A DNA stretch of 25,726 nt from Thermoanaerobaculia bacterium (GCA_035763965.1 DASUAD010000090.1:1-25726); one strand, 5' to 3'. Positions 1 through 25,726 are shown, counted from the first letter of the stretch. Notes: generated by a model not told the origin, from the sequence alone. Numbers and translations are program-made.

Positions 1-141
1 CGCGAAACGAATTCGGGGTTGCCGCGCCGCCGTTTTGCCTCTTCTCGAGGCGGTGAGGCGAGAACCAAGAAGAGGCTGAGCATGGAGTGGCCTCTCCCGT
101 TACGCTTCCGGACGCGGGTTCAACTCCCGCCGCCTCCACCA
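1..141 (+). ncRNA. ssrA: tmRNA, 3' portion (5' part lies outside the window)
   Basis: Ends TTCCGGACGCGGGTTCAACTCCCGCCGCCTCCACCA. T-arm GCGGG(114-118)/TTCAACT/CCCGC(126-130), acceptor 3' strand CGCCTCC plus ACCA (fits the G3-U70 Ala identity), upstream CTGAGCATGGAG resembling the conserved TAAGCATGTAG segment, and a helix GCCTCTTCT(37-45)/AGAAGAGGC(68-76). No D or anticodon arm, so not a tRNA. Confidence 0.85.
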
Positions 142-211
142 ATGCTTGTCCACGCACATCACTCAACCCACTGAAAAGGCGCGATCTCTACATCTGCCGA
201 ATTCGTGTCGG
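135..211 (+). repeat. Left copy of 77-bp diverged direct repeat (putative attL core plus arm)
   Basis: Ungapped alignment to 25650-25726, 64/77 identical (38/41 in the distal part). Begins with the last 7 nt of tmRNA, TCCACCA. Confidence 0.9.
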
Positions 212-214
212 TAG

Positions 215-1726
215 TCACACCAGGAACAGCCGGTACGCCGGATTGCGGCTCTCGTCCCAGTGGCGGTAGCCGAGGTCCTTCAGGAACCGCCGGAACTTCG
301 GTGAGTCCTTGCGGGGGACCTGGATCCCCGCCAGCACGCGGCCGTAGTCTGCGCCGTGGTTGCGGTAGTGGAAGAGCGAGATGTTCCAGTCGCTCCGCAT
401 GCGGTTCAGGAACCTCATCAAGGCTCCGGGTCGCTCGGGGAACTCGAACCGGAAGAGGCGCTCGTCCTTGGCCATCGGCGCGCGCCCTCCGACGAGGTGG
501 CGGACGTGGAGCTTGGCCATCTCGTTGTCGGAGAGGTCGAGGACTGGTAGGCCGTGGCGCCTCAGCACTGCGAGGAGCGCCCGCGTCTGGCTCTCGTTCT
601 CGACCTCGACCCCGACGAAGACGTGCGCGTTCACCGCATCGGCGTACCGGTAGTTGAACTCGGTGATGTTGCGGGGCCCGACGACGGCGCAGAACTCGCG
701 GAAGCTGCCCGGCCTCTCGGGAATCGTGACGGCGAGGATCGCCTCGCGCCGTTCGCCCAGCTCGGCGCGCTCGGCCACGTGGCGGAGCCGCTCGAAGTTC
801 ATGTTCGCGCCGCACGCGATCGCGACGAGCGTCCGACCTTTGACGCTGCGGCGCTCGGTCCAGGTCTTGAGCCCCGCGACGGCGAGCGCCCCCGCGGGCT
901 CCAGGATCGAGCGCGTGTCCTCGAAGACGTCCTTGATGGCCGCGCAAATGGCGTCGGTGTCCACGAGGACGACCTCGTCCACGAGCTCTTGGCAGAGCCG
1001 GAAGTTCTCGCGCCCCACCTGCCGGACGGCCACACCGTCCGCGAAGAGCCCGACTCTCGGCAGGCGCACGCGGCGCCCCGCCTTGAGCGAGCGATGCATC
1101 GCGTCGGCGTCCACGGGCTCGACGCCGACCACACGCGTCCCCGGGCTCAGCCGCTTGACGTAGGCCGCCACCCCCGCGATGAGGCCGCCTCCTCCCACGG
1201 CCACGAAGACCGCGTCGATGCCGGCGGGCCGCTGCCTCAGGATCTCCATCCCGATGGTCCCCTGTCCCGCGATGACGTCGCGGTCGTCGTACGGGTGGAT
1301 GAAGGTCCTGCGCTCCTTCCGGGCCAGACGCCGCGCCTCGGCGTAGGCCTCATCGTACGAGTCGCCCAGAAGGACGACCCGCGCGCCCCGCGAGGCCACG
1401 GCGTCCACCTTGATGCGGGGCGTCGTCACGGGCATGACGATCGTGGCCGAGCACCCCAGCTTCGCGGCGGCCAGCGCCACCCCCTGCGCATGGTTGCCCG
1501 CCGAAGCCGCGATCACGCCTCGCTTCAGCGCTCGGCGAGGCAGGCGGCACATCTTGTTGTAAGCGCCGCGCAGCTTGAAGGAGAAGACGGGCTGCAGGTC
1601 CTCGCGCTTGAGCAGCACCGTGTTGCCGGTGCGCCGTGTCAGACCCGGGGCGGCCTCGAGCGGTGTCTCGACGGCCACGTCATAGACACGCGCCGCGAGG
1701 ATCCGCTCGAGATAGTCGTTCCGCAA
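215..1726 (-). CDS. ilvA: Threonine ammonia-lyase, biosynthetic (503 aa, TTG start)
   Basis: KREDLQPVFSFKLRGAYN PLP-lysine motif, SAGNHAQG, VGGGGL, and two C-terminal regulatory repeats (PERPG...FxYR; FPERPGAL...LFHYRNHG). Confidence 0.96.
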   Translation of the reverse strand: MRNDYLERILAARVYDVAVETPLEAAPGLTRRTGNTVLLKREDLQPVFSFKLRGAYNKMCRLPRRALKRGVIAASAGNHAQGVALAAAKLGCSATIVMPVTTPRIKVDAVASRGARVVLLGDSYDEAYAEARRLARKERRTFIHPYDDRDVIAGQGTIGMEILRQRPAGIDAVFVAVGGGGLIAGVAAYVKRLSPGTRVVGVEPVDADAMHRSLKAGRRVRLPRVGLFADGVAVRQVGRENFRLCQELVDEVVLVDTDAICAAIKDVFEDTRSILEPAGALAVAGLKTWTERRSVKGRTLVAIACGANMNFERLRHVAERAELGERREAILAVTIPERPGSFREFCAVVGPRNITEFNYRYADAVNAHVFVGVEVENESQTRALLAVLRRHGLPVLDLSDNEMAKLHVRHLVGGRAPMAKDERLFRFEFPERPGALMRFLNRMRSDWNISLFHYRNHGADYGRVLAGIQVPRKDSPKFRRFLKDLGYRHWDESRNPAYRLFLV

Positions 1727-1758
1727 GGGGCGGCCGCCGCGCGTGCGAGGAGCCGTGC

Positions 1759-2763
1759 CTAGCCCGCCGGTCCCTGGTGAGAACGCGTAGCGGTCTCTCG
1801 GCTAAGCCGGCGGCCGAAGAAAGCGACACGCCCCGGCTCGGCCGCCGGGACGGGGTGGCACCACTCCTTCGAGCGCGGGTGCTCGCCGCGCACGGCTGCG
1901 TGGAAGGCCTTCTGGAGGGCGCGTGTGACGGGGCCGGTCGTGCCCGCGCCAATGCGACGGAAGTCGATCTCGCTTAGCGCGATGCACTCCGCCGCCGTGC
2001 CGCAGACGAAGACCTCGTCGGCCGTGTAGAGCTGGTCGCGTGAGACCGGGCGCTCGACCACCGTGTGGCCGAGGTCCTGCGCGAGCGTGACGAGGGCGTC
2101 GCGCGTGATGCCCTCCAGAATGGGCGCCGAGGGCGACGTGACGATGGTGCCGTTCTTCACGAGGAAGAGGTTCTCGCCCGTGCACTCGGCGACATAGCCC
2201 TGCGGGTCGAGCATGATCGCCTCGTCGAAGCCGAGGCGGACCGACTCCGTCTTGGCGAGGAAGCTATTGGCATAGCTGCCGCAGATCTTGGCCTTCGTCA
2301 TGGTGACGTTGGGGTGGTGGCGAGTGAAGGACGACACGTTCGCGCGCACGCCGTGCTCCAGGGCCTCGGCCCCGAGGTAGTTGGTCCACTGCCACGCGGC
2401 GATCCCGATGGACGGCGAGCCGCCGTCGAGGTTGAGGTTCCAGCCGCCGGTCGCCAGGGTGAGGAGCGGCCGGATGTAGCAGTCCTCGAACTCGTTTCGC
2501 ACGACGACCTCCGTGCAGGCGTCGACGAGGTCCTGCTCGGAGAACGGGAGCCCGCGGAAGCCCAGGCACGCGGCCGAGTACAGGAAGCGGGTGATGTGCT
2601 CCTTCAGCCGGAAGACGGCCGGTCCGTGCGCGGTCTTGTAGCAGCGGATGCCCTCGAAGACGCCGATGCCGTAGTGCAGGCCCGGCGTCAGGAAGTGCAG
2701 GGTGGCCTTCTCGAAATCGACGAAAGCGCCATCCATCCAGATCGTCTTCGATTGGAGCGTCAT
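1759..2763 (-). CDS. ilvE: Branched-chain amino acid aminotransferase (334 aa)
   Basis: LHYGIGVFEGIRCY, YIRP, AKICGSY, GYVAECTGENLF, ILEGITR, DEVFVCGTAAE (class IV PLP aminotransferase). Confidence 0.95.
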   Translation of the reverse strand: MTLQSKTIWMDGAFVDFEKATLHFLTPGLHYGIGVFEGIRCYKTAHGPAVFRLKEHITRFLYSAACLGFRGLPFSEQDLVDACTEVVVRNEFEDCYIRPLLTLATGGWNLNLDGGSPSIGIAAWQWTNYLGAEALEHGVRANVSSFTRHHPNVTMTKAKICGSYANSFLAKTESVRLGFDEAIMLDPQGYVAECTGENLFLVKNGTIVTSPSAPILEGITRDALVTLAQDLGHTVVERPVSRDQLYTADEVFVCGTAAECIALSEIDFRRIGAGTTGPVTRALQKAFHAAVRGEHPRSKEWCHPVPAAEPGRVAFFGRRLSRETATRSHQGPAG

Positions 2764-2773
2764 CGTGTTCCTT

Positions 2774-3868
2774 TCATTGCGCGGCCGTGACCGCCGGGGC
2801 GGCGATCGCCCCGGCGATGGCCTCGGTCATTTCAGTGGTCGACGCCGCTCGAGTCCCCGGGGGCGCCAGCTCGGCCGTACGAAGGCCCGCGGAGAGAGCG
2901 GCCTCGATCCCCTTCTCGACCGCATCCGCCTCCTCGGGCAGCGAGAGCGACCACCTCAGCAGCATCGCGACCGATCCGATCGCCCCGATCGGATTGGCGA
3001 GGTTCTTCCCTGCCAGAGACGGGGCCGAGCCGTGCACGGGCTCGAAGAGCCCCGGTCCCTTGCCGAGGCTGGCCGACGGCAGGAGGCCGAGCGAGCCGAC
3101 GAGCGCGCCGACCTCGTCGGAGAGGATGTCGCCGAAGAGGTTCTCCATCACGAGGACGTCGAAGCGAGCGGGCGAAAGAACCAGACTCATCGCGCAGGAG
3201 TCCACGAGCTGGTGCTCCAGCCTGACGTCGGGATAGCGCTCGGCGACCTCGTTCACGACCGCCCGCCAAAGGCGCGAGGTCTCGAGGACGTTCGACTTGT
3301 CGACCGACGTCACGAGGCGCCGGCGAGAACGAGCCAGGCGAAACGCGAGGTCGGCCACGCGGGCGATCTCCTCGCGCGTGTAGGGAAGCGTGTTGACGGC
3401 CGTCCCGGCCTCGAGGTCCACGCCGCGCGGCGTGCCGAAGTAGAGCCCGCCGGTCAGCTCGCGCACGATGAGGAGGTCGAGCCCGCCCGCCACTTCGCGC
3501 CGGAGCGGCCCGGCGTTCTCCAGACCGGGAAAGATCCGCGCCGGACGGAGGTTGGCATAGACGCCGAGTGCCTTGCGCAACCGAAGGAGACCCGCCTCCG
3601 GCCGCCCGTCGGGGGGAGCGTCGTCGAAGGAGGGGTCGCCCACGGCGGCGAGGAATACGGCGTCGGCCGAGAGGCAGGCCTCCCGCGTTCTCTCGGGCAG
3701 CGGCGTGCCTTCGCTCCGGATTGCGGAGGCGCCGATCGGAAGCGGCGTGATCTCGAAGCGGTGGGAGAAGCGCTCCGCGACGGCGCGAAGGACCGTCAGG
3801 GCCGCGTCGGCGACCTCGGGCCCGATTCCGTCTCCCGGCAGAACGACGATCTTGGCGCCACGGCCCAT
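2774..3868 (-). CDS. leuB: 3-isopropylmalate dehydrogenase (364 aa)
   Basis: LPGDGIGPEV, RELTGGLYFG, VDKSNVL, NLFGDILSD, EPVHGSAP. Confidence 0.95.
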   Translation of the reverse strand: MGRGAKIVVLPGDGIGPEVADAALTVLRAVAERFSHRFEITPLPIGASAIRSEGTPLPERTREACLSADAVFLAAVGDPSFDDAPPDGRPEAGLLRLRKALGVYANLRPARIFPGLENAGPLRREVAGGLDLLIVRELTGGLYFGTPRGVDLEAGTAVNTLPYTREEIARVADLAFRLARSRRRLVTSVDKSNVLETSRLWRAVVNEVAERYPDVRLEHQLVDSCAMSLVLSPARFDVLVMENLFGDILSDEVGALVGSLGLLPSASLGKGPGLFEPVHGSAPSLAGKNLANPIGAIGSVAMLLRWSLSLPEEADAVEKGIEAALSAGLRTAELAPPGTRAASTTEMTEAIAGAIAAPAVTAAQ

Positions 3869-5149
3869 TCAGACTCCGTACCCGTAGCCCGGTTCTTCGA
3901 TGGCCGTCTCCTCGCGCCACGCGGGCTCCGAGGTTCGATCGCCTCCGTCGGTCCGCGCCACGCGGAACGCCACCGGCGCATGGCGCCGCGCCTCGGCTCG
4001 CTTGATCTCCGCGACGAGCTCGAGGACGTCGGCGTCGCGGATGACCTTCCGGGTGTCGGCCCGGCGGATCATCCGCTTGTAGACCTCGTCGAGCTCGAGC
4101 CGCGAAAGGGAGACCTGCAGCGCCTGGCACCGGTTCTTCAAGGCATGGCGGCCGGAATGCTTGCCCAGGACGAACGTCGTCTCGGGAACGCCGACGTCCT
4201 CGGGCCGCATGATCTCGTACGTCCGGCGGTCCTTCAGGAGGCCGTCCTGGTGGATGCCCGCCTCGTGGGCGAATGCGTTTCGGCCCACGATGGCCTTGTT
4301 CGCCTGAACCGGCTCGCCGGTGACCTCGCAAAGGAGCTGGCTCGCGGCGAGAAGGCCCGGCGTCCTGATGCCGGTCTCGTAGGCGAGGAGATCGGGCCTC
4401 ACCTTCACGGCCATGACGATCTCCTCGAGCGAGGCGTTTCCGGCGCGCTCGCCGATTCCATTGATCGTGCATTCGACCTGCCTCACCCCGCCTTCGAGCG
4501 CCGCGAGCGAGTTGGCGACGGCGAGGCCGAGATCGTTGTGACAATGGGCGCTGAACGTGACCTGGTGAGCATTCGGCACGCGCCCGATGATGCTGCGGAA
4601 AAAGCCGGTGATCTCGTGCGGCAGCGCGTAGCCGACGGTGTCAGGCAGATTGATGGTCGTCGCCCCGGCCTCCATGACGGCCTTCACCACCGAAGCGAGA
4701 AAGTCGAGGTCGCTGCGGGTGGCGTCCTCGGCCGAGAACTCGACGTCGTCGACGCTGCGGCGCGCCCTCTCGACGGCCTTCGCGGCCGCGTCCAGGCACT
4801 CCTCGCGCGTCATGCGCAGCTTCTTCTCGAGGTGAAGGTCCGATGTCGCGATGAAGGTGTGAAGACGCGGGCGCGCCGCACCCTCGAGCGCGGCGCAGGC
4901 GCGGTCGATGTCCTGGGGGGCGCATCGGGCGAGCGCGGCGATCGCCGGCCGGCGAACCTCGCGCGACACCGCGCGAACCGCCTCGAAGTCGCTGTCGGAG
5001 GCGATCGGGAAGCCCACCTCGACGACGTCCACGCCGAGCTCATCGAGGGCGCGCGCCAGGCGCAGCTTCTCGCTCTCACGCATGGAGAAGCCCGGCGCCT
5101 GCTCGCCGTCTCGGAGGGTCGTGTCGAAGATCGTAATTCGCTCTCTCAT
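3869..5149 (-). CDS. leuA: 2-isopropylmalate synthase, short form without C-terminal regulatory domain (426 aa)
   Basis: True start [20 protein letters not shown] at 5149 (ATGA overlap with the ilvC stop). Motifs [41 protein letters not shown]. The ORF-track start at 5563 is spurious. Confidence 0.9.
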
Positions 5150-6159
5150 GCGACCCTCCCGACGACGACCGGGTTCAGGAACGGCATCTTCGCGCGCAGC
5201 TCCTGGCCCACCTGCTCCACGAGGTGCTCGCGCTCCTTCGCGCGGGTCGCCTCGAACGTCCGGCGGCCGTTGCGGTTCTCCTCGATCCACGCCTCGGCGT
5301 ACGTCCCCTCCTGGATCTCGGAGAGGATCCGCCGCATCACCGTGCGCGTCTCCTCCGTCACGATGCGCGGCCCGGCCGTGTAGTCGCCGTGCTCGGCGGT
5401 GTCGCTGATGGAGTAGCGCATGTAGTTCAGGCCGCCGCGGTACATCAGGTCGACGATGAGCTTCAGCTCGTGCAGGCACTCGAAATACGCGACCTCCGGC
5501 TGATAGCCCGCCTCGACCAGCGTCTCGAAGCCGGCCTTGACGAGTGCGCTCGTGCCGCCGCAAAGTACCGCCTGCTCGCCGAAGAGGTCCGTCTCGGTCT
5601 CCTCGGCGAAGGTCGTCTCCAGAACGCCCGCCCGCGTGGCGCCGAGAGCCTTCGCGTAGGCGAGCGCGTCCTCGCGCGCGTGCCCGCTGGCGTTCTGGTC
5701 GACCGCCAGGAGAGCCGGCGTGCCCTCGCCCTCCGTGAAGAGCTCGCGGACGCGATGGCCGGGAGCCTTCGGCGCGATCATGGCGACGTCGACGTCGTGA
5801 GGCGGCACGATCTGCCCGAACCGGATGTTGAAGCCGTGAGCGAAGAGGAGCGCCTTGCCCTTGACCAGGTGCGGCGCGATCGACTCCTCGTACAGCTTCT
5901 TCTGGCCGGTGTCGGGCGTGAGGATCATGATCATGTCCGCGCGCCGCGCGGCCTCGTCCACGGGCAGGACCGTCAGCCCATCCGCCTTCGCGCGCGAGGC
6001 GGACGGCGACGTGGAGTAGAGGCCGACCACCACGGCCACGCCGCTGTCGCGAAGGTTGAGGGCATGGGCGTGACCCTGGCTTCCGTAGCCGATGACCGCC
6101 ACCGTGCGGCCCTTCAGCCGCGAGAGATCAGCGTCCTTGTCGTACCAGATCGTAGCCAT
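5146..6159 (-). CDS. ilvC: Ketol-acid reductoisomerase (337 aa)
   Basis: [71 protein letters not shown] upstream. Confidence 0.97.
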
Positions 6160-6451
6160 CGAAATCTCCTTTGTTCAGCGCCTGTTGCGGCTCGTGCGAG
6201 CCGTGGATCGCCCGGACGTGTTCCGCGTCGAGGACCTCGTAGACGTCGTGGAGGCGCCGGAGCTGTCTCTTCAGGAGCGCACAAAGCGCCTCGTCCGAGT
6301 CCGCGACGATGAGGAGCCGGCCGGCCCCGCCTTCCGCAGTCTCCTCGAAGAAGCAGCGCCTGAGCGAGATGCCCTGACGCCGGAAAAGCGCCTCCACGCG
6401 TGACAGGAAGCCGGGGGTGCCGTTGACCTTCAGCCAAAACGTGTATTCCAT
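6128..6451 (-). CDS. ilvN: Acetolactate synthase small subunit, single ACT domain (IlvN/IlvM-like, 107 aa)
   Basis: Lies between ilvB and ilvC. ACT-like pattern [18 protein letters not shown]...[15 protein letters not shown]. Tail overlaps the ilvC start by 32 nt. Confidence 0.75.
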
Positions 6452-6454: not shown

Positions 6455-8185
6455 TCAGCTCTTTTCCCCGCGGGCCCGCCGAGGGTCTTCGATGACCATC
6501 GCGTCGATCGACTGGCCCGCCGGCCACATCGGGTAGCAGTTCTCCTCGGGGTCGCAGATGACGTTGACGACGGCCGGGCGGTCCTCCACGGCGAGGGCTT
6601 TCTGGAAGACCGCGTCGACCTCCTCGGGCCGCCGCGCCGTGAAGGCCGCGGCCCCGAGCGACTCGGCCACCTTCGCGAAGTCGGGGTTCCTCAGCTCGGT
6701 GGAGAAGAAGCGCTTGTCGTAGAAGAGCTCCTGCCACTGGCGGACCATGCCGAGGCCCTGGTTGTCGATGATGACCACCTTGATCGGTAGCCGCGCTTCG
6801 GCGGCGGTCACGAGGGCCTGCATCGTCATCTGGAAGCTGCCGTCCCCGTTAATGTTGACGACGAGCCGGTCGGGAAGCGCGCACTGCGCGCCGATTGCGG
6901 CGGGCAGTCCGTAGCCCATGGTCCCCAGGCCGCCCGAGGTGATGAAGCTGCGCGGCTCGTCGCACTTCCAGAACTGGGCGGCCCACATCTGGTGCTGCCC
7001 GACGTCGGTCGTGAGGATCGGCCGGCGGCTATTCGTGACGTGCCAGAGACGGTCGATGGCGAACTGCGGCAGGATCGGGCCATCGCCCTGCTCGTAGCGG
7101 AGGGGGTGCTTCGCCTTCCACTCCTCGACCCGCCGCCACCAGACGCCGGTGTCCGGGGCGCCCACGAGCGGCAAGAGCTGGTGGAGGACCGTCTTGGCGT
7201 CACCCACGAGTGGGAAGTCGGCCTTGCGGTTCTTCCCGATCTCCGCCTCGTCCACATCCAGGTGGATCACCTTGGCGTGCGGGGCGAAGGTGGCCAGCTT
7301 GCCGGTGATGCGGTCGTCGAAGCGGGCGCCGAGCGCGATGATGAGATCGCTCTCGTTCATGGCGTAGTTGGCGTAGACCGTGCCGTGCATGCCCAGCATC
7401 CCGAGCGACTGCGGGTCGGACTCGGGGAAGGCGCCCTTGGCCATGAGCGTCGTCGTGACGGGGATCCGGGTCTTCTTGGCCAGGCGCCTGACCTCCTCAG
7501 AGGCGCCGGCGGAGATGACCCCGCCGCCCACGTAGAGCACCGGCCGCCGCGCGTTCGTGATGGCCAGCGCGGCCCGGCGCAGGGCGGTGGGGTCGGCGCG
7601 GCGTTTCCGAGACGACGGCTCGGCCGCCTCCTCCTCGGGCTCGATCTGAGCCTGCAGGACGTCGCGCGGCACGTCCACGAGGACGGGACCGGGGCGGCCC
7701 GAGACCGCCAGATGAAACGCCTCGCGGATCGTCGGGATCAGGTCCTCCGGCTCCAAGACCAGCCAGTTGTGCTTCGTGACCGGCTGCGTGATGCCGAGGA
7801 TGTCGGCCTCCTGGAACCCGTCGCGGCCGATGAGCGGCCTGGTCACCTGAGCCGTCAGGGCAACGATGGGCGTGGAATCCATGTAGGCGTCGGTCAGGCC
7901 CGTCACGAGGTTCGTGGCCCCCGGCCCGGACGTGGCCAGGCAGACGCCCGCGCGTCCCGTGGCGCGCGCGAAGCCTTGGGCCGCGTGGGAGCCGCTCTGC
8001 TCGTGCCGCATCAGGAGGTGCGCGACGCCGGGCGTCTGGAAGAGGGCGTCGTAGAGAGGAAGGGCGGCACCGCCCGGGTGGCCGAAGATGTGAGTGACGC
8101 CCTGCCGGGCGAGCTCCTCGGCGAGCAGGTTGGCGGCGCGGACTCTTTCCCGGGGACGGGCGTCGGTGCGGAGAGCGGTGCTCAT
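6455..8185 (-). CDS. ilvB: Acetolactate synthase large subunit (576 aa)
   Basis: [66 protein letters not shown], ThDP motif GDGSFQMT...[11 protein letters not shown]. Confidence 0.96.
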
Positions 8186-9849
8186 GCCAGGGCCCCTTTC
8201 ATCTGGAATCCGGTGACCGCCCCGTCGGAGGCGGAAGAGACGAGCTGCGCGTACTTCGCGAGCGCGCCGCCCGAGTAGCGCGCGGCCGGCGCGGTCCAGC
8301 GCGCGCGGCGCGCATCGAGCGGCGCCTCCACGTCGATCCGCCGGGAGACGACGTCGATCGTGATCGGATCACCATCTTTGACGAGCCCGATCGGCCCCCC
8401 GGCAGCCGCCTCGGGCGACACGTGGCCGACCATGAGGCCGTGCGTGGCGCCGCTGAAGCGCCCGTCGGTCACGAGCGCGACGCTCTCGCCGAGGCCCTGC
8501 CCCACGAGCGCCGCCGTCACCGCGAGCATCTCGGGCATGCCCGGAGCGCCGCGCGGCCCTTCATAGCGGATGACGACGACCTCGCCCGGGAAGATCTCGC
8601 CGCGCTCGGCTGCTGCGAAGGCCGCGATCTCGCCGTCGAAGACGTGCGCGGGGCCGGTCGCGTGCAGGCGCTCGTGGCCCGCCAGCTTCACGACGCAGCC
8701 CTCGGGCGCGAGCGAGCCCCGGAGAATCGCCAGGCCGCCGGTCGATTTCACCGGCCTCTCGAGCGGTCGGATCACGGCCTGGCCCGGAGTCTCTTTCGCC
8801 TCGGAGGCTTCCGCGAAGAGCGTCCGGCCGGTCACGGTCATCTCGTCGTGAACGAGCCCGGCCTCCATGAGGCGCCTCGCCAGGAGGCGCGAGCCGCCGG
8901 CCCGGTCCATGTCCGGCGCGGTGAAGCGACCCCCGGGCTTGAGGTCCGCCAGGATCGGCGTCTTGGACGCGATGACGTCGAAGTCGTTGAGCGCGAGCGG
9001 AACGCCCGCCTCCCGCGCGATCGCGAGCAGGTGCAGGACCGCGTTCGTCGAGCCGCCCGTGGCCGCGACGGCAGCGATGGCGTTCTCGAACGCCCCGCGG
9101 GTGAGGAGGCGCGAGGGACGGCGGTCCTCCGCGAGACACCTCATCACGAGACGGCCGGCCTCGTATGCCGCCTCGTCCTTTCGCGGGTCATTCGCGGGGA
9201 CGTCGTTGGCGCCCATCGGCGAGATCCCGAGGAAGGTGAGAGCCGTCGCCATGGTGTTGGCCGTGAACTGGCCGCCGCAGGCGCCGGCGCCGGGACAGGC
9301 GCTCTCCTCCATGTTCGTCAGCTCCGCCGGGCTCATCCGGCCGGCGGCGTGTGAGCCGACCGCCTCGAACACGTCCTGGATCGTCACGTCGTGCCCATCC
9401 ACCCGGCCCGGCTGGATGGAGCCGCCGTAGATCGCCACGCCTGGGATGTCGAGCCGCGCCAGGGCCATGACGGTCGCGGGGATCGTCTTGTCGCAGCCGG
9501 AGATCGCCACGACGGCGTCGAGCGAGTGCCCCGCCACCGCCAGCTCGATGGAGTCCGCGATGACCTCGCGCGAGATGAGCGACGCCCGCATGCCGTCGGT
9601 GCCCATCGAGATGCCGTCGGAGACGGCGATCGTGTTGAACTCGAGCGGCGTCCCGCCGGAAGCGCGGATGCCTTCCTTCACTTTCTCCGCCAGGCGGCGC
9701 AGGTGGATGTTGCAGGGGGTGACCTCGGTCCAGGTGTTCGCGACGGCCACGAGCGGCCGGTCGATGTCCGCTCGGGTCAGGCCCGTCGCGCGCAGCATCG
9801 CGCGCGCCGGCGCGCGGGAGGGACCTTTCTTGATGGCGTCGCTTTTCAT
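8182..9849 (-). CDS. ilvD: Dihydroxy-acid dehydratase (555 aa)
   Basis: [63 protein letters not shown]. Confidence 0.96.
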
Positions 9850-13520: not shown

Positions 13521-13528
13521 ACGGAGAC

Positions 13529-13741: not shown

Positions 13742-13774
13742 CCGGTCCCGGTACTCGAGTCAGGAGGCGAGTCT

Positions 13775-15465: not shown

Positions 15466-15916
15466 CGTCGTTTTCGAGCCCGAAGTCCTCGAGGAGATCG
15501 CGCGAGCCGCTGCGAAGGCGTATCCGTACGAAGGCTGCGGCGCGCTGCTGGGTGAAGCGCGACACGTCCGCGTCACGCTGCCGCTCCCGAACACGGAGAA
15601 GGGAACGCCGCGCGTGCGGTTCGAGGTCTCGCCGAAGGACTACCTGGGCGTCGAGCGCGAGGCCGACGCGCGCGGCGTGAGGCTCCTCGGCTTCTGGCAC
15701 AGCCACCCCGACCACCCCGCCCGGCCCTCGGCCACGGATCGCGCTTTCGCCTGGGAAGGGCTCCTCACCGTGATCGTTTCGGTCGAGAGGGGCCGCTCCG
15801 CCGACATCGGCGCGTGGGAGATCCTCGGGCCGGAGTCCCCGTTCGAATCCGTCGAGATCGCGAGCCCGGGCGCCGCGGCGCTCGTCACCCCCCTTTCGAA
15901 AGAAGGAGAAACCTGA
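15455..15916 (+). CDS. JAB1/MPN (Mov34) metalloprotease, Mec/HcyD-like (153 aa)
   Basis: GTG start at 15455. JAMM motif E(GCG)...WHSHPDHPARPSATD. Confidence 0.9.
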   Translation: MLPSVVFEPEVLEEIARAAAKAYPYEGCGALLGEARHVRVTLPLPNTEKGTPRVRFEVSPKDYLGVEREADARGVRLLGFWHSHPDHPARPSATDRAFAWEGLLTVIVSVERGRSADIGAWEILGPESPFESVEIASPGAAALVTPLSKEGET

Positions 15917-16197
15917 TGCCCGTTCCCGTCCGAATCCCCACCCCGCTCCGGCGTTTCACGGGGGACCGCGCCGAGGTTTCCGTCAAGGCCGCAGATCTCT
16001 CCTCGCTCCTGGAGCGTCTCTTCGAGGAGTGTCCCGGGCTCCGGGGCCAGCTCCTCGGCGAGGATCGCAAGCTCCGGAGCTTCGTGAACATCTACGTGAA
16101 CGACGAGGACGTCCGCTTTCTCGACGGTCTGAAGACCGCTGTGAAGGACGGCGACTCCGTCGAAATCGTGCCGGCGATCGCGGGCGGCGGGGAATGA
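15916..16197 (+). CDS. MoaD/ThiS/CysO-family ubiquitin-like sulfur carrier (93 aa) with C-terminal extension
   Basis: VRIPTPLRRFT...RSFVNIYVNDEDVRFLDGLKTAVKDGDSVEIVPAIAGG followed by GE-stop. RBS GAAGGAG. Confidence 0.9.
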   Translation: MPVPVRIPTPLRRFTGDRAEVSVKAADLSSLLERLFEECPGLRGQLLGEDRKLRSFVNIYVNDEDVRFLDGLKTAVKDGDSVEIVPAIAGGGE

Positions 16198-17381
16198 GCC
16201 CCGGTCCCGGCACGCGGGCGACGCGGGGAGGCGAGGCACGCAAGAAGGGTTTCGACGCGGTCACCCAGCCGATCGTCTGTACGGCGACGTACGCCTTCGA
16301 CGACACGGCCGAGATTCGCGACCATTTCGAGGGGCGCGTCGCGCGCGAGGAGTACGGCCGCTACGGAAACCCCACCGTTCGGGCGGCCGAGAGAAAGATC
16401 GCGGAGCTCGACGGCGCCGAGGATTGCATTCTCTTCGCGAGCGGGATGGCGGCGGCGACGACCGCGCTGCTGGCCCTGTTGAAGAGCGGCCAGCACGTCG
16501 TCATGACGTCGGACTGCTACCGGAGGACGCGGCAGTTCGTGTCGAAAACGCTTCCGCGCTACGGAATCGAGCACACGTTCGTCGAGCCGGGAGACGACGG
16601 AGCTCTCGAGACGGCGATCCGGCCCGGGAAGACGCGGCTCATCCTGGCCGAGTCGCCCACGAACCCGTACCTCCGCGTGGCGGACCTGCCGCGCCTCGTC
16701 GCCCTCCGCGACCGGCATCCGGGCGTGAAGATCCTCATCGATTCCACGTTCGCGACGCCCGTCAACGAGCGCCCGCTGGAGATCGGCGTCGACCTCGTCC
16801 TCCACTCCGCCACCAAGTATCTCGGCGGCCACAACGACCTCTTGGCGGGGTCGCTCTCGGGAAGGGCGGACCTGATCTCCGGCCTGCGGGATCTGCGCGG
16901 GGTTCTCGGCGGGGTCCTCGACCCGCACGCGGCGTATCTGCTGCTCCGGGGCGTGAAGACTCTCGACCTCCGCGTGAGGCGTCAGAACGAGTCGGCTCTG
17001 CGCGTGGCCACCTGGCTGGAGTCCCACGAGCGCGTCGAGCGCGTCTTCTATCCGGGGCTGGCCAGCCACCCGGACCACGAAATCGCGAGACGGCAGATGT
17101 CCGGCTTCGGGGGCGTCGTGAGCTTCCTCGTGAAAGGGGATCTCGACGCGGCCTCGCGGTTCATCGACGCCACTCGGCTGCCCATCATCGCGCCCTCCCT
17201 CGGCGGCGTGGAGAGCCTCATCGAGCAGCCGGCGCTGATGTCCTTCTACGAGCTCACCACGGAAGAGCGGCGCGCCATCGGCATCTTCGACAACCTCGTG
17301 CGCCTCGCCGTGGGCATCGAGGATGCCGACGACCTCATCGCCGACCTCGAGCACGCGTTTTCCACGGCGGCTCGGGGATAG
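16194..17381 (+). CDS. metB: Cystathionine gamma-synthase-family PLP enzyme (395 aa)
   Basis: ATG overlaps the carrier stop. Motifs YGRYGNPT, FASGMAA, ESPTNP, DSTFATP, PLP lysine HSATKYLGGHND, SLGGVESL, RLAVGIED. Substrate specificity is uncertain. Confidence 0.8.
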   Translation: MSPGPGTRATRGGEARKKGFDAVTQPIVCTATYAFDDTAEIRDHFEGRVAREEYGRYGNPTVRAAERKIAELDGAEDCILFASGMAAATTALLALLKSGQHVVMTSDCYRRTRQFVSKTLPRYGIEHTFVEPGDDGALETAIRPGKTRLILAESPTNPYLRVADLPRLVALRDRHPGVKILIDSTFATPVNERPLEIGVDLVLHSATKYLGGHNDLLAGSLSGRADLISGLRDLRGVLGGVLDPHAAYLLLRGVKTLDLRVRRQNESALRVATWLESHERVERVFYPGLASHPDHEIARRQMSGFGGVVSFLVKGDLDAASRFIDATRLPIIAPSLGGVESLIEQPALMSFYELTTEERRAIGIFDNLVRLAVGIEDADDLIADLEHAFSTAARG

Positions 17382-17439: not shown

Positions 17440-18260
17440 TTCTCGCGCTTGCGGAGATGATCGAGGATGCGCTTGATGACAGCGGGTTGGGTGATGAAGC
17501 CGACGACTCTCATTTCGCCTCCGCAGCGTAGACACACGAGGGGGTCGACTTCGTAGACGCGCCGAATAAGATCCGCCCAGCGGCGCCTGAGGGCCGCGCG
17601 GTCCGCCCCCTCAGGCGTTGGCTCCGCCATCGACGCCTCGCTCGAGACGGAGGGCTGGGGCGGCGCCTCGGCCTTGCGGCGCTCGCCCGGGGCCACGTTG
17701 GAGTAGGCGCCGTAGTAGCGGACCAAATGGCGCCTTGGGTCCGGGATCTGCACGAGGACCCGGGCCACAAACTCCATCGCGTCTATCCTCTCGCTTTCCG
17801 TCGGCTCGAGCTGGTCATGCCTCCTCTTGCGCGCGTAGAGGACCTCGTGCGAGCCGGGCGTCAAGCGTACCCGGGAGAGGCTCACCGGGGAGCGCATCAT
17901 GTAGCGGACCAGCGCCTCGAGACCCTGGCTATCCCCGGCGGGCACATAGACCCGGTTGTGGACGGAGAAGCCGCTTCGCCTCCACGACAACAGCAGCTCG
18001 ATCCGCTCCTGGCTCAGCAGCCCTCTTCGCCGGAGGAGGGCTGGGACCTTGTGGCGGAAGAGCTCTTGGGCCGCTGCCTCATCCACATACGGCACCAGGA
18101 TCCCCTCCCCTGAAGCCGTCCAGCCTCCCCGGGAAACCAGCGCGTGGACATACGCGTGGAAGTTCGCCCTGTCGCCGAAAGTCTGGACCACCGACACCAA
18201 CCCAGGCCGAAAACCCTTCTCCTCCGCGACGGCTGCCGCCATGAGCTCCTTCACGGTCTC
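17440..18260 (-). mobile_element. IS91-family (Y2 HUH) transposase remnant, 5'-truncated and degenerate
   Basis: VVQTFG..NFHAYVHAL (HUH degenerate), SGFSVHN, RYMMRSP, HLVRYYGAYSN, WADLIRRVYEVDPLVCLRCGGEMRVVGFI...ILDHL. No N-terminal Zn domain and no stop at the expected position. Confidence 0.85.
17883..17994 (+). repeat. 112-bp IS91 segment duplicated at 24877-24988
   Basis: 111/112 identical, direct orientation, 6994 bp apart. The single difference is G17906 vs A24900. Confidence 0.95.
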
Positions 18261-18441
18261 TCTTGTGGTGTCCGTTTGTCTTGACCTTGTCGCCCAAGCA
18301 GCTGCTGCCCATTGTGATGGTTGTGCTTGGCCCCTCTGGTCCCTTGGGCCCCTTGCCCTGGGCCACGGCCGCGCCCGCCCAGGCGAAGACACTGAGCAGG
18401 ACCAAGATGGCGAGAAGAGAGCGTTTCGTACGATTCATCAT
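18261..18441 (-). pseudogene. 5' fragment (~60 codons) of a secreted protein, cut by the IS91 remnant
   Basis: RBS AAGGGGAG, then MMNRTKRSLLAILVLLSVFAWAGAAVA|QG (basic n-region, hydrophobic h-region, AxA site). The frame then runs into IS91 sequence. Confidence 0.6.
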
Positions 18442-18629
18442 TTGACTCCCCTTGGGCCCTTCGGTCGTTAGACCGTCACGCGTATCCGCTCCTACGTACA
18501 CAAGGGGTCGGGCGGACGTCTGATGAGCAGGCACGACAGCCGTCCTCGGGAGCCGTTGCCGGCCGTTGACCGTCCATGCAACCACGGCTTCGAGGCGGGG
18601 CCGCGCCGGCGCAGGCGAGGTACAGAGCC

Positions 18630-20114
18630 CTACAGCGCCAGCACCGTCTCCCCGTGCGAGAGGTACCGGTCCGCCGACCGGGCCGCAATCCTGCCTTCGC
18701 GGATGGCCCAGACGACGAGAGACTGGCCGCGCGAGATGTCGCCCGCCGCGAAGACGCCGGGGATCGACGTCATCTTGTCCTCGTCCGTCCAGACGTTGCC
18801 GCGCTCATCGACCTTGACTCCGAGCTGCTGGATCACAGGGCGCTCGGGACCGATGAAGCCGAGTGCGAGGAGGACGAGCTCGGCGGGGAGGATCTTGTCA
18901 GTGGCCGGGACCTCCCGCGGGACGAGGCGTCCGTTGTCGCCCTTGACCCATTCGACCTCGATCGCGTGAACCTCCTGGACCTGCCCGGAGTTGCCGATGA
19001 AGCGCTTGGCCGTCATCGAGTAGCGCCGCGGATCCGCGCCCCAGAGAGCGGCGGCCTCCTCCTGGCCGTAGTCCATGCGGTAGATCTTCGGCCACTGAGG
19101 CCACGGGTTGTCGCTGGCGCGCTCGGCCGGAGGACGCGGCAGGATCTCGAGCTGGACGAGGCTCTTTGCGCCGTGGCGTACGGCCGTGCCGACGCAGTCG
19201 GTGCCGGTGTCGCCGCCGCCGATGACGACGACGTTCTTGCCCTTGGCCGAGACGTAGCGGCCGTCGGCGTGGCCCGAGTCGAGGAGCGATTTGGTGCTCT
19301 GGGTGAGGAAGTCCATCGCGAGGTGGATCCCCGAGAGGCTCCGCCCTTCGATCGGCAGGTCACGCCCGTGCGTCGCCCCTCCGCAGAGGACGACGGCGTC
19401 GTACTCGTTGAGGAGGACGGAGGCCGGAATGTGCTTGCCGATCTCGGTCTTCGTGACGAAGCTGACGCCTTCGGCCTCCATCATCTTCACGCGCCGCTCG
19501 ACGAACCTCTTGTCGAGCTTCATGTTCGGGATGCCGTACATGAGGAGCCCGCCGATCCGGTCGGCACGCTCGAAGACGGTGACGGAGTGGCCGGCCTTGT
19601 TGAGCTGCGCGGCCGCGGCGAGGCCCGCGGGCCCCGAGCCCACGATCGCGACGCTCTTGCCGGTCCTACTCGCGGGCGGCTCGGGCGAGATCCAGCCCTC
19701 CTCGAAGGCCTTGTCCACGATCTCGCACTCGATCGACTTGATGGTGACCGCGGGCGCGTTGATGCCGAGCGTGCAGCTGCCCTCGCAAGGGGCCGGACAG
19801 ACGCGGCCGGTGAACTCCGGGAAGTTGTTCGTCTTGGCGAGGCGGATCCACGCCTCGCGCCGCTGCCCGCGCCAGGCGAGGTCGTTCCACTCGGGGATGA
19901 GGTTGTTGACCGGGCAGCCGCTCGTCATGCCGGCGATGAGGATGCCGGTGTGACAAAACGGGATCCCGCACTCCATGCAGCGGGCCGCCTGTTCCCGCAG
20001 GATCTTCTCCGGCGTTCTCTCGTGCGATTCGTCCCAGTCCTTGATGCGCGTCAGCGGCGAGCGGTCGTGCTGGGGCTCGCGCGGGTACTCGAGAAATCCG
20101 GTCGGCTTGCCCAT
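18630..20114 (-). CDS. gltD: Glutamate synthase small subunit (494 aa)
   Basis: True start [10 protein letters not shown] at 20114. Motifs [13 protein letters not shown]...[41 protein letters not shown]. Confidence 0.96.
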
Positions 20115-20116
20115 GG

Positions 20117-24733
<4,617 letters not shown>

Positions 24734-24876
24734 CTTCGCTCCCGGGTCTCGGGCCCGGTAAAACGGGGGAGTTTCCTCTTCCTGGAGGCGACCGTCAAGC
24801 CCGGCCGGCTTTCGCGGCTTTCGCGCGCGACTCTCGCATGGCTCCCTCGCCGGCGCTTATCATGCCTCTTCGGACC

Positions 24877-24988
24877 CACCGGGGAGCGCATCATGTAGCA
24901 GACCAGCGCCTCGAGACCCTGGCTATCCCCGGCGGGCACATAGACCCGGTTGTGGACGGAGAAGCCGCTTCGCCTCCACGACAACAGC
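24877..24988 (-). mobile_element. 112-bp internal IS91 transposase scrap (second copy)
   Basis: Encodes LLSWRRSGFSVHNRVYVPAGDSQGLEALVCYMMRSPV, near-identical to 17883-17994. Confidence 0.9.
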
Positions 24989-25085
24989 GGTCGTAGCTCT
25001 TCCCATCCTGCGTCGGTCTGGAGAACAAATCTTCCCCGGCGATCAATGAAAAAAGAGAACCAAAACTCCGGACTGCCAAATCACG

Positions 25086-25132
25086 GGGTTACCTTTTCAG
25101 TGTCTCGACGATCCCCTCCCGGGTTACCTTTC
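25086..25132 (+). repeat. Tandem GGGTTACCTTT pair (35-bp period), candidate IS-end repeats
   Basis: Exact 11-bp repeats at 25086-25096 and 25121-25131, related to 13482-13509. Confidence 0.55.
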
Positions 25133-25136
25133 TGAA

Positions 25137-25349
25137 ATGGCGACGCTCCTGAAGGAAATGTTCGAGAAGCGGGCGGACACGGCCACGCTGGAGGCGGCAC
25201 TGGACCGGTCGCTGGTCCCGGACGAAGCTGAGCTCCAAAAGATCATGCGGTATTCGAGCTATCTGTCACGCCAGGAAGAGCGATACGTCGAGATGCTGCT
25301 GAAGCTGCAGGAAGTACGGCGTGAGCGGGAGAGGGAGGGTCACATCTAG
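25137..25349 (+). pseudogene. Hypothetical protein, probably a 3' fragment (70 aa)
   Basis: Helical segment LQKIMRYSSYLSRQEERYVEMLLKLQEVRR resembles C-termini of island-borne hypothetical proteins. Starts abruptly after the IS-end-like motif with no RBS. Confidence 0.35.
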
Positions 25350-25437
25350 GGATCACCAAAGAAGACTATTTCTGCGAAACGAACCCACCGGAATCGATTG
25401 CCGAAATCGCCGTCGGCGGGCCGACATCGGTCGAGGC

Positions 25438-25668
25438 CTAGCTTTCGCCGAGAGATCCAACCGACCGGAGCGCCTTGGCGACGGTTTTGTCCGTGACGCC
25501 CAGGTGACGGCCGATCGCGGATAGGCTGAGCCCCAGGCTGCGCAGGCGCCTCGATTCCAGGGCGATTCGCCGGTACGCGGGGATGACCGCCTCAAACAGG
25601 GCCGCCTGGAACGGGATCTCTCCGGCGGTTCGAATTCTTTGCGAACGTGTCCACCAACTCTCATCCAC
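25438..25668 (-). CDS. Small helix-turn-helix protein spanning the putative att core (76 aa, GTG start)
   Basis: C-terminal HTH LSLSAIGRHLGVTDKTVAKAL. Its W-W codons are the complement of CCACCA (25651-25656). Confidence 0.65.
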   Translation of the reverse strand: MDESWWTRSQRIRTAGEIPFQAALFEAVIPAYRRIALESRRLRSLGLSLSAIGRHLGVTDKTVAKALRSVGSLGES

Positions 25669-25726
25669 TCACGTCACCCAGCCTGCTGAAAAGACGCGAT
25701 CTCGACATCTGCCGAATTCGCGTCGG
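25650..25726 (+). repeat. Right copy of 77-bp diverged direct repeat (att core plus arm of a neighbouring element)
   Basis: 64/77 identical to 135-211 with no gaps. Runs to the window edge. Confidence 0.9.

Follow-up and report, generated by a model that had tools for sequence, protein, structure and literature searches.

How a normally "core" Ile/Leu/Val pathway comes to lie directly behind a tmRNA gene (ssrA), in a bacterium whose family otherwise lacks it, is the question raised by the stretch of DNA analyzed here. This stretch, the window (25,726 nt), is the complete contig C90 of the MAG G000, and begins within the last 141 nt of ssrA. An earlier note had read it as an amino-acid prototrophy island integrated at ssrA and as one unit of a tandem array. 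Our analysis indicates that positions 142–25656 are very probably a genomic island that was acquired horizontally and lies at the 3′ CCA terminus of the tmRNA gene; its canonical form bears an integrase, and the window copy is a derivative. A 25.5-kb island would thus give a soil bacterium ten Ile/Leu/Val genes otherwise absent from its family, and the pathway would travel as mobile DNA between species.

The ssrA Junction and Its Distant Repeat

As judged from its 98.6% identity to the tmRNA of the same-genus genome G006, the window tmRNA is of the host-genus type; sister-family tmRNAs align with it over the last 39 nt only. The host carries a single tmRNA gene, which is complete when C642 and C90 are taken together, and ARAGORN misses the part in the window because the gene is truncated there. 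C642 stops precisely at the tmRNA CCA and has a 141-nt overlap with C90, which fits a branch in the assembly graph at a k that we infer to be 141.

The repeat described in the earlier note is present as claimed: positions 135–211 and 25650–25726, 25,515 bp apart, align over 77 nt, ungapped and 83% identical, and each copy opens with TCCACCA followed by a 70-nt arm. The second copy reaches the end of C90. Arm similarity stops at ~212, and in related contigs that reach further, arm 2 is not followed by ilvA-like sequence. Identity among island-bearing contigs rises from 33–98% to 99–100% exactly at the left core TCCACCA. Arm 1 was not found downstream of ilvA in six genomes of the sister family, the candidate donor.

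G000 is a fragmented MAG (674 contigs, 2% contamination), and the host-type sequence within C90 amounts to exactly one 141-nt stretch, as would be expected if a sister-family contig had been fused to, or sorted into the bin of, a host-genus genome. We nevertheless give such an artefact next to no credence. In JGI and ENA assemblies, at least six independent contigs read through the entire tmRNA gene into arm 1 and ilvA, and that gene has only 39 nt in common with sister-family tmRNAs. Both flanks are spanned by a single conspecific ENA contig, k141_1463998 (34 kb), which runs from a left flank 98.2% identical to C642 through the island to a right flank 97.4% identical to C185; the ~2.5 kb between the end of C90 and C185 are absent from the G000 assembly. 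The two arms match exactly over at most ~15 nt, too short a stretch for the repeat itself to have produced an assembly join. Both island junctions are therefore real insofar as independent assemblies reproduce them, contrary to the join that the earlier note had named as a possible undoing of its reading, and the right end of the window is present in DNA runs from at least nine studies of soil or wetland metagenomes.

Cargo of the Island

Profile matches and gene calls confirm that the repeat copies enclose all ten Ile/Leu/Val genes, gltBD, and a sulfur/Met module (Table 1).

Table 1. Features of the window, with positions counted from its first nucleotide
Feature	Position	Strand	Evidence or remark
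tmRNA gene (ssrA), 3′ part	1–141	+	Rfam RF00023, 69 bits; cut at 5′ end, remainder on C642
Left core TCCACCA, tmRNA 3′ end and left island boundary	135–141	+	Identity jump at this point
Arm 1, island-borne left arm	142–212	+	99–100% identical across all island copies, whatever the host flank
ilvA, biosynthetic threonine ammonia-lyase	215–1726	−	TIGR01124, 822 bits
ilvE, branched-chain aminotransferase	1759–2763	−	TIGR01122
leuB	2774–3868	−	TIGR00169
leuA, short form (426 aa) without LeuA_dimer domain	3869–5149	−	NF002086, profile positions 3–391 of 516; Pfam HMGL-like and HCS_D2
ilvC	5146–6159	−	NF004017
ilvN, AHAS small subunit (107 aa)	6128–6451	−	PF22629 (ACT_AHAS_ss)
ilvB, AHAS large subunit	6455–8185	−	TIGR00118
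ilvD	8182–9849	−	NF002068
LysR-type regulator	10083–10979	+	PF00126 and PF03466
leuD	11053–11655	−	NF002458; gene call of 200 aa
leuC	11652–13055	−	NF004016
Variable segment	13093–15294		Alignment gaps vs L206 and L230–L235; Pfam
Repeat-related scrap within variable segment	13163–13533		Four copies of the scrap in G020
PAPS-reductase fragment within variable segment	13775–14401		Pfam
Sir-like gene, starting in variable segment	14203–15465		Pfam; 72–76% nt identical to same-genus sir genes
Sulfur/Met module: JAB protease, ThiS-like carrier, cystathionine-gamma-synthase-type enzyme	15455–17381	+	Profile matches, gene calls
IS91-family (Y2_Tnp) transposase remnant	17516–18272	−	PF04986, NF033538
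gltD (494 aa, cluster P0121)	18630–20114	−	TIGR01317
gltB	20117–24733	−	ORF and gene calls
Second IS91 copy, fragment	24865–25002	−	Includes a 112-nt, 99% repeat of 17883–17994
70-aa ORF of HTH-type end module, no family match	25137–25349	+	Encoded exactly in L114 and L115
Breakpoint	25141/25142		Canonical copies diverge beyond here
Small HTH gene (76 aa)	25438–25668	−	ORF; weak HTH_38 and HTH_23 matches
Conserved 30-nt motif ending in TCCACCA	25627–25656	+	Right boundary of the 99%-identical block
Arm 2, host-side or older-element arm	25657–25726	+	83% identical to arm 1; cut by contig end

The cargo appears to be a mosaic of the ilv/leu cluster with its LysR regulator, the sulfur/Met module, and gltBD bracketed by IS91 remnants. 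The short leuA is called as 426 aa in related contigs too, and most other island copies hold, in place of the variable segment, a shorter segment with an ACT-domain gene. The sulfur/Met module is 82% identical at the nucleotide level to G037:C4 and G029:C118, where it is unlinked to the ilv cluster. The window gltDB is 75% identical to that of the sister family over 6 kb of nucleotide sequence, and a gltB paralogue (45%) lies on contig C260 of G000. The two IS91 pieces that bracket gltBD are in direct orientation, and the variant copies L207–L212 hold a longer piece of the second. The transposase is partial, covering only positions 111–355 of 356 in NF033538 and scoring 75.7 bits, under the NCBIfam cut-off of 125, and no IS91 ori or ter ends were identified flanking gltBD; the segment thus departs from what marks an IS91/ISCR-type capture.

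Origin of the Ile/Leu/Val Cluster

In terms of distribution, none of 14 same-genus and none of 24 sampled same-family genomes yielded ilvA, ilvD, or leuC; auxotrophy of the family is read from gene absence in MAGs, many of them incomplete and several 97–99% complete in 1–10 contigs. In the sister family, ilvA is present in 6 of 9 genomes, ilvD in 8, and leuC in all 9, with close matches 73–90% identical in amino-acid sequence over the three genes. ilvC occurs in 3 of 104 other host-family genomes and is broken in 2 of these 3. No second copy of the island Ile/Leu/Val genes was found in G000, a check that the earlier note had proposed. With a host family lacking ilvA, ilvC, ilvD, and leuC, the island would be the sole Ile/Leu/Val route of G000, and it is predicted from this gene content to confer prototrophy.

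Wherever the genes were detected in three sister-family genomes, G037, G035, and G033, their order matches that of the island cluster; leuA and leuD had no match in these genomes that passed the score cut-off and are outside the comparison. The LysR regulator is kept at the same position of the donor-family cluster (65–69% identical in G037 and G033). The IlvA tree gives the island clade genus g12 as its sister and leaves g16 outside (support 100/97), which puts the island IlvA inside the sister family. Patchy distribution and an incongruent IlvA phylogeny are both marks of foreign origin, and on these comparisons the ilv/leu cluster, together with its regulator, is syntenic with the sister family of the same order and very probably falls inside it. 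The cargo genes are unequal in identity to the same donor genomes (IlvA 90%, IlvD 75%), and thus no single sampled donor accounts for the entire cluster.

The Island in Other Hosts and Its Canonical End

Six independent metagenome contigs from different hosts (L111, L112, L113, L201, L202, and L204) are 99.2–100% identical to the window right of the CCA, with left flanks that are 98%, 80%, 65–85% identical, or lower. Canonical copies are collinear with the window up to 25141, after which they continue into a 112-aa ORF, a tyrosine integrase (384–446 aa, PF00589) that adjoins attR, a 26-nt copy of the tmRNA 3′ end, and then the flank that natively lies downstream of ssrA. This flank is 77–81% identical to the sequence that begins 2–3 nt after the tmRNA end in the island-free genomes G012 and G007. 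The displaced 26-nt repeat, the integrase, and the empty site in relatives are what defines a tDNA island, and on these features the canonical form is a classical one. Its integrase family is patchy in both families (37 of 175 genomes). What is new here is this canonical integrase/attR end and a window copy without that module. In the mechanism that we propose, the canonical tyrosine integrase would have recombined the island site-specifically at ssrA and so moved it from one species to another.

The broken ilvC remnants in G003 and G066 show a pathway formerly present in the family, and could be taken to mean that the cluster stood at ssrA in the ancestor of the order and was lost by all other family members. 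Such vertical inheritance is very improbable. The remnants are only 49–67% identical to the island IlvC, IlvA nests in the sister family, and ilvA adjoining ssrA was not found in sampled relatives, so that the finding with which the earlier note would have abandoned its reading, the same genes at the same position in relatives, did not materialize. Moreover, the island is 99% identical between hosts whose flanks share 65–85%, the canonical copies have an integrase and attR, and the breaks in identity at both island boundaries contradict descent in place. A family without the genes, synteny and IlvA placement with the sister family, 99% copies in different hosts, the boundary breaks, and a contig across both flanks together strongly support an island at ssrA.

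The Right End of the Window Copy

From 25142 onward, the window departs from the canonical end. The 70-aa ORF encoded there has no Pfam match. The small HTH gene that follows has its start codon within arm 2, its WW codons are the TCCACCA core, and homologues occur at ssrA loci of other genera. Of 175 genomes of the order, 25 have the 30-nt motif, and in six genomes it lies 0.8–17 kb downstream of ssrA; no second copy is present in G000. Identity is lost at 25656–25658 in L114, L115, L206, and the Logan contig X1. Based on these sequence comparisons, the right end of the window is a different module, not the island's own attR. The window copy has lost its integrase and attR module. We reconstruct a swap of the integrase end for an HTH end, in which the copy would have acquired, from 25142, a junction with the end of a different ssrA-linked unit comprising the 70-aa ORF, the small HTH gene, and the motif with TCCACCA. 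The premise of the earlier note that a plain attR would precede chromosomal sequence holds for the canonical copies, with their 26-nt repeat and native flank.

The window element lies immediately 3′ of an intact tmRNA gene, as a tDNA island does, but at its far end ssrA shares only TCCACCA (7 nt, 25650–25656), short of the displaced tDNA copy of typically at least 15 nt. No empty site was found for the arm-2 flank. No recombinase of any kind is present among the window ORFs and the canonical integrase was not found in the G000 assembly, whose three PF00589 matches all lie outside C90; mobility of the window copy is thus unsupported, and the copy is probably immobile alone, or mobilizable only in trans.

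The Second Arm

The second att-type junction of the window (25650–25726) ends in arm 2, which is only 83–87% identical between hosts that share a 99% identical island. The earlier note took this arm for the left arm of a second related island starting at 25657. Arm 2 is homologous to the island-borne arm 1, is hypervariable (83–87%) between hosts otherwise 97–98% identical, and has a relative directly after the tRNA-Asp CCA in G010, which argues that arms act as element ends rather than as the trailer of one locus; true two-step ssrA arrays are also present, in G083 and G153. However, beyond the arm-2 homologue, 4.4 kb of the conspecific 34-kb contig encode a cupin, an ArsR/rhodanese regulator, an MFS transporter, and a large ORF, with no integrase, HTH gene, motif, or further TCCACCA. 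The cupin belongs to the resident genes of the genus and lies 4–15 kb from ssrA in three relatives. Together with the end of island similarity at ~212 and the single motif copy in G000, this leaves a tandem array improbable and the least likely reading of arm 2.

Alternatively, arm 2 could be the native ssrA trailer of the host lineage; the forming island would then have picked up its arm 1 from a host of this kind. Arm 2 varies by host lineage (83–88% identity among G000, L115, and L206), whereas arm 1 stays constant, and in g12, too, a lineage-specific ssrA terminator hairpin stands on either side of a ~1-kb HTH unit. Against this, among the 14 same-genus genomes, none with an assembled downstream flank has an arm-like sequence after ssrA (in 2 of the 14 the contig stops at the tmRNA end, and 3 have no full-length tmRNA match). 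A whole-genome search of the 14 gave one arm, at a different gene, the tRNA-Asp of G010, and none was seen among 40 relatives. Arm 2 is also 83% identical where neighboring host DNA is 97% identical. We regard a native trailer as rather unlikely. Since arm 2 belongs to a family of arms found directly after CCA ends, the remnant of an older related element stays plausible, and we tentatively prefer, at somewhat below even chances, the reading of arm 2 as the leftover left arm of such an element at the ssrA hotspot.

Comparison with Known Systems

The island is reminiscent of the ssrA-specific islands of Dehalococcoides, vcr-GI and its relatives (McMurdie et al. 2011, PMC3146451). As in the window, these bring metabolic cargo to a single-copy ssrA, carry a conserved motif without alignment to ssrA immediately upstream of the repeat, and include units without integration genes that are proposed to move by accretion (PMC3146451). 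Near-identical islands in different strains are a further likeness, and several of the Dehalococcoides islands stand in tandem downstream of ssrA (PMC3146451), an arrangement that the window would share only under the tandem-array reading. The Dehalococcoides islands differ in their CcrB-like serine recombinases beside attL, insertion at the T-loop, and 20-bp repeat (PMC3146451), whereas here the canonical tyrosine integrase lies beside attR with a 26-nt repeat, and no serine recombinase was found. Their cargo consists of reductive dehalogenases, in contrast to the anabolic core pathway seen here.

Williams (2003), "Traffic at the tmRNA gene", reportedly belongs beside the Islander/TIGER-type tDNA islands. 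These islands, which have tyrosine integrases (Hudson et al. 2015, PMC4383910), share with the present one integration at the 3′ end of a tRNA or tmRNA gene that the island restores, a displaced fragment at the far end, an integrase at one end, and an empty site in relatives. The window copy differs in having neither the integrase nor the displaced 26-nt fragment, and in the unusual repeat geometry of its right end, which shares with ssrA only TCCACCA, plus a 70-nt arm that lies downstream of the gene. Cis-mobilizable elements, or CIMEs, move through accretion with an ICE or IME (Guedon et al. 2017, PMC5704250); they carry att-like sequences at either end but no genes for recombination or transfer, and derive from a full element that has lost its mobility module. 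The window copy likewise has lost its integrase module and has TCCACCA-plus-arm ends that are putatively att-like, but no integrase-bearing neighbor was seen.

Biosynthetic genes that relieve auxotrophy are also mobile or extrachromosomal in ICEMlSymR7A, the Mesorhizobium symbiosis island at tRNA-Phe, the vitamin biosynthesis genes of which make recipients prototrophic, and in the leucine plasmids of Buchnera. Those cases concern vitamins or one amino-acid operon in symbionts, whereas the present island combines a complete ten-gene pathway with GOGAT and sulfur/Met genes in free-living soil bacteria.

Gene content and assembly of the window

The window comprises all of contig C90, the longest contig of the metagenome-assembled genome (MAG) G000 (674 contigs, 3.28 Mb, 92% complete, 2% contamination). 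ARAGORN reported no tmRNA in the window, where the gene is truncated; the remainder of the gene is found on contig C642 of the same MAG, which stops exactly at the CCA and shares a 141-nt overlap with C90. This overlap points to a branch in a k=141 assembly graph directly after ssrA. The repeat described in the earlier note is present, with positions 135-211 and 25650-25726 aligning without gaps over 77 nt at 83% identity, and so are the genes listed there, all ten ilv/leu genes, gltBD, and a sulfur/Met module. The second IS91 fragment contains a 112-nt repeat (99%) of the first IS91 remnant. GC content was dropped as evidence for an island, as the values for the island (68.0%) and the genome (67.5%) give no distinction.

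Features of the window and of individual loci compared with it
Feature	Sequence	Position	Strand	Remark
tmRNA 3' part	window	1-141		Rfam match
Arm 1	window	142-212		after tmRNA CCA
ilvA, ilvE, leuB, leuA, ilvC, ilvN, ilvB, ilvD, leuD, leuC	window		minus
LysR regulator	window		plus
PAPS-reductase fragment, Sir-like gene, JAB, ThiS-like gene, CGS-type enzyme	window			after ilv/leu genes
Segment just upstream of leuC	window	13091-13160		~70 nt
cysH fragment and Sir-like gene	window	13093-15294		variable segment
IS91-family transposase remnant, gltD, gltB, second IS91 fragment	window			next in order
70-aa ORF and 76-aa HTH gene (minus strand)	window	final 600 nt
Arm 2	window	25657-25726		after second TCCACCA
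HTH-motif-TCCACCA	L064 (G018:C245)	9434-9463
HTH-motif-TCCACCA	L065 (G024:C281)	7310-7339
tRNA-Asp with adjoining 73-nt arm homologue	L227 (G010:C138)	3977-4130
Broken ilvC	G003:C12	208026-208721
Broken ilvC	G066:C13	7209-8046

The variable segment with the cysH fragment and the Sir-like gene is peculiar to the window's variant; in most other island copies its place is taken by a shorter segment bearing an ACT-domain gene. The sir gene shares 72-76% nucleotide identity with same-genus sir genes and 76% amino acid identity with a paralogue on C214, and may therefore have been acquired from a same-genus host. The segment just upstream of leuC matches several sister-family genomes at 84-89% (G031 at two places) and has no tRNA and no Rfam match; a permissive Rfam search of 12900-14300 gave chance-level matches only. 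This segment could represent a leader or a short repeat.

Occurrence of the island at ssrA in several species

Among relatives with an assembled ssrA flank, neither ilvA nor an arm was found after ssrA; the downstream flank is hypervariable, and several contigs stop at the CCA. A scan for the arm pattern in one genome per GTDB species and exact-protein look-ups of the HTH protein and GltB gave no match. Loci were obtained by look-ups of the 70-aa ORF and of members of the GltD and IlvA clusters. Three JGI contigs (L111-L113) and the ENA loci L201, L202, and L204 carry a whole tmRNA gene followed by arm 1 and ilvA. To the right of the CCA, these loci are 99.2-100% identical to the window, and to its left their identity to the window's host is 98% in L201, 80% in L202, 65-85% in L204, and down to 33-93% in L113. 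The switch in identity is located at the tmRNA end, and the left flanks are syntenic with the same-genus region upstream of ssrA. A nearly identical island beside divergent flanks indicates that one island occupies ssrA in several species, which excludes a chimera or mis-binning as the origin of the locus.

The ENA contig k141_1463998 (34,351 nt; L201 plus L206), which belongs to the species of G000, matches C642 at 98.2% in its left flank and continues with the entire island at 99.3%, the motif ending in TCCACCA, an arm-2 homologue at only 83%, and 4.4 kb more, part of which is 97.4% identical to the end of C185, a further G000 contig. As this contig spans matches to C642, the island, and C185, the three contigs C642, C90, and C185 belong to one locus, of which ~2.5 kb is absent from the MAG. 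Logan contigs on 18100-25726 supply near-identical gltBD and right-end pieces from four studies and are too short to bridge the junction.

Canonical copies with a tyrosine integrase

The loci L230 (on the same contig as L202), L231, L232, L233, and L235 match the window at 99.2-99.5% as far as 25141 and then diverge. Past this point, L230, L232, and L233 carry a 112-aa ORF, a PF00589 tyrosine integrase of 384-446 aa, and a 26-nt copy of the tmRNA 3' end. L235 terminates within the integrase gene, and L231 has a matching 408-aa ORF without a Pfam match on record, on a contig that stops before the repeat. Past the 26-nt repeat, the flank matches, at 77-81% identity, what immediately adjoins the end of ssrA in the island-free genomes G012 and G007; the canonical layout is that of a textbook tDNA island with its empty site. 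Copies of the integrase module share 97-99.9% identity, and the G000 assembly lacks the module. Relatives of the integrase (37-74% identity; 72% in G104) are patchily distributed over 37 of the 175 genomes of the order and occur in both families, which makes this integrase family a plausible shared vehicle for the two. The top match, in the unpublished genome G099, was left out of account, and G104 leads to the same conclusion.

The native sequence after ssrA in the genus (the flank after attR in L230, L232, and L233) is a multi-copy repeat of ~100-150 nt, with >30 copies at 75-92% identity in G000 (C13, C631, C152, and others). A variant island, L207-L212 (WNGF01001779.1, WNFU01001622.1, and others; JGI Ga0137368_10000627), has gltBD and leuC at 99% identity, between which lie metY/metX-like genes, a sigma-54 activator, glnK-amtB, and pheA; its IS91 copy right of gltB is longer. 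The island family evidently exchanges whole biosynthetic modules.

Origin and significance of the cargo

The 141-nt piece of tmRNA in the window has the sequence type of the host genus, being 98.6% identical to G006 and 96% to G012, and sister-family tmRNAs align to it over 39 nt only. No ilvA, ilvD, or leuC was detected in 14 same-genus, 24 sampled same-family, or 7 third-family genomes; in the sister family these genes are found in 6 to 9 of 9 genomes, mostly at 73-90% amino acid identity. G000 has no second copy of ilvA, ilvB, ilvC, ilvD, leuA, leuC, or leuD, and ilvC occurs in 3/104 other host-family genomes, two of the three copies being broken. The broken copies in G003 and G066 (stop codon; split frames) look like relics of a lost ancestral pathway.

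For the detected genes, the order of the cluster matches that of the sister family (leuA and leuD fell below the score cut-off there), in which the ilv cluster is not near ssrA. Both gltDB (75% nucleotide identity) and the JAB-CGS module (82%) are also closest to the sister family, where they are unlinked to the ilv cluster; the island is therefore a mosaic. A maximum-likelihood IlvA tree groups the island sequences in a tight clade whose sister is genus g12; genus g16, which belongs to that sister family too, branches outside the two (support 100/97), and Gemmatimonadales and Betaproteobacteria lie further out. The nearest IlvA proteins outside the order (67-77%; L121-L200, P0055-P0120) are mostly from Betaproteobacteria, with a few from Gemmatimonadales, and the order's own ilvA may have an inter-phylum history. 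Sequence evidence strongly supports the proposal that the window is an island that could confer prototrophy, pathway function being predicted.

In free-living bacteria, amino-acid auxotrophy is usually regarded as the gradual and irreversible result of losing genes, which ties lineages to cross-feeding. Here, a complete ten-gene branched-chain pathway, glutamate synthase, and a sulfur/Met module are carried on a site-specific island that is 99% identical across several species of a family otherwise without the pathway and that recurs in the soil and wetland metagenomes of many studies. Should the genes prove functional, one transfer event could reverse metabolic dependency in this group, and the island would provide a natural presence/absence system for testing the costs and gains of auxotrophy in soil. 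Calls of pathway completeness for MAGs of the group will flip with the binning of one contig that breaks at ssrA.

The right end of the window copy

From 25142, the window, L114, L115, and L206 share another module, made up of the 70-aa ORF, the HTH gene, and a 30-nt motif with TCCACCA at its end. L114 matches 24815-25656 at 99.5% and is unrelated beyond; L115 is ~99% identical to 25656 and continues into an arm-2 homologue (87%) and then new sequence; and a Logan contig from a wetland run departs from the window at 25658. The right end is also present in the RNA runs X15-X18. The 30-nt motif is patchily distributed over 25 of the 175 genomes of the order, in both families, and in six genomes it follows ssrA, in the same orientation, at a distance of 0.8-17 kb. 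Genera g10 and g12 have it at the end of a ~1-kb unit whose small ORFs are RHH or toxin-antitoxin-like. A true two-step array is present in G083 and G153, where ssrA and the ~1-kb motif unit are separated by a classical island with a tmRNA repeat of 24-28 nt. In G090, the motif is followed by a sequence that directly follows ssrA in other family members; the unpublished genome G098 agrees with G090 but was left out of account. The distribution of the motif near ssrA and the G090 flank indicate that motif-TCCACCA is the end of another ssrA-linked element. That it is the island's own attR was rejected, as the canonical copies have the integrase and the 26-nt repeat. The window copy is an integrase-less derivative of a classical, apparently still spreading ssrA island, its own integrase and attR end having probably been replaced by a motif-type end, likely through deletion or recombination within an array.

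No recombinase was found among the scanned ORFs of other ssrA-to-motif intervals (G091, G083), and no PF00589 match lies inside these intervals. PF00239 was absent from 4/5 genomes searched, the sole match, in G010, being on a separate contig, C99. In L064 and L065, from two other genera, HTH-motif-TCCACCA lies directly against the start codon of a gene for an N-acetylmuramoyl-L-alanine amidase, and the reading frame of the HTH gene seems degraded; in G024 the cupin homologue follows ~3 kb further on.

On the minus strand, the arm provides the start codon of the HTH gene, which in the window lies in arm 2, and TCCACCA forms its WW codons. We consider it doubtful that an actively spreading prototrophy cassette is combined here with an undescribed second ssrA attachment system at the HTH-motif-TCCACCA-arm junction. 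For the cassette, a single integrase-mediated event at ssrA would reverse the loss of Ile/Leu/Val synthesis and also bring GOGAT and sulfur/Met functions to several species of a soil Thermoanaerobaculia family that is otherwise auxotrophic. For the junction, recombination would give the HTH gene a different promoter and start codon, so that the gene would report or control the integration state.

Genomic islands that integrate at tRNA or tmRNA genes are of a known kind (PMC4383910), and CIMEs are integrase-less units moved by accretion (PMC5704250). The closest described case is that of the tandem ssrA islands of Dehalococcoides, which have metabolic cargo, a non-ssrA motif beside the repeat, and some integrase-less units thought to move by accretion (PMC3146451). 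Metabolic cargo, such a motif, and integrase-less units are likewise found here, whereas the cargo itself differs and a tyrosine integrase adjoins attR in place of the serine recombinase that adjoins attL in Dehalococcoides. A full-text literature search found no description of an ssrA island with a complete Ile/Leu/Val pathway or of a prototrophy island in Thermoanaerobaculia, which is an absence of a match and not proof of novelty.

The second arm

Arm 1 is invariant in all island copies, including the canonical ones with an unrelated native flank. Arm 2 is 83-88% identical among G000, L115, and L206, and G000 and L206 are 97-98% identical around it. Arm 1 travels with the island, and arm 2 remains on the host side. 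A fifth arm homologue lies directly after the tRNA-Asp CCA in G010, and all five arms align over ~73 nt starting at CCA. Genes for a methyltransferase and an ABC-2 transporter lie downstream of the G010 arm, and neither an integrase nor a tRNA-end repeat was found within 4 kb.

In the conspecific contig, arm 2 is followed by ~350 nt with a multi-copy 50-nt repeat and then by a cupin gene, an ArsR/rhodanese regulator, an MFS transporter, and a large ORF; in this genus, the cupin gene is a resident of the ssrA neighbourhood. The earlier note's tandem array is not shown by this contig, in which no second element was seen in the 4.4 kb past arm 2 and the resident cupin lies there. A full second island starting at arm 2 is unlikely, given that these 4.4 kb hold no integrase, HTH gene, or TCCACCA. 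From the divergence of the arms, the arm at the G010 tRNA-Asp, and the gene content past arm 2, the leading reading, itself tentative, is that arm 2 is a solo arm from an older related element; that it is a native ssrA trailer is possible and less probable than a solo arm.

The ~50-nt repeat (84-92%) lies on the reverse strand of L206, ~343-394 nt past TCCACCA, between arm 2 and the cupin, and has up to 11 copies per same-genus genome (G001, G011, G013, and others). In G007:C1, G010:C56, and G003:C11, the cupin is 4-15 kb downstream of ssrA in the orientation opposite to that of the G000-type locus, which suggests an inversion in a plastic ssrA region. In G036, a third-family genome with 4% contamination, contigs C7, C8, and C19 hold three full-length tmRNA genes above the Rfam cut-off, reflecting either a mixed bin or real duplicates.
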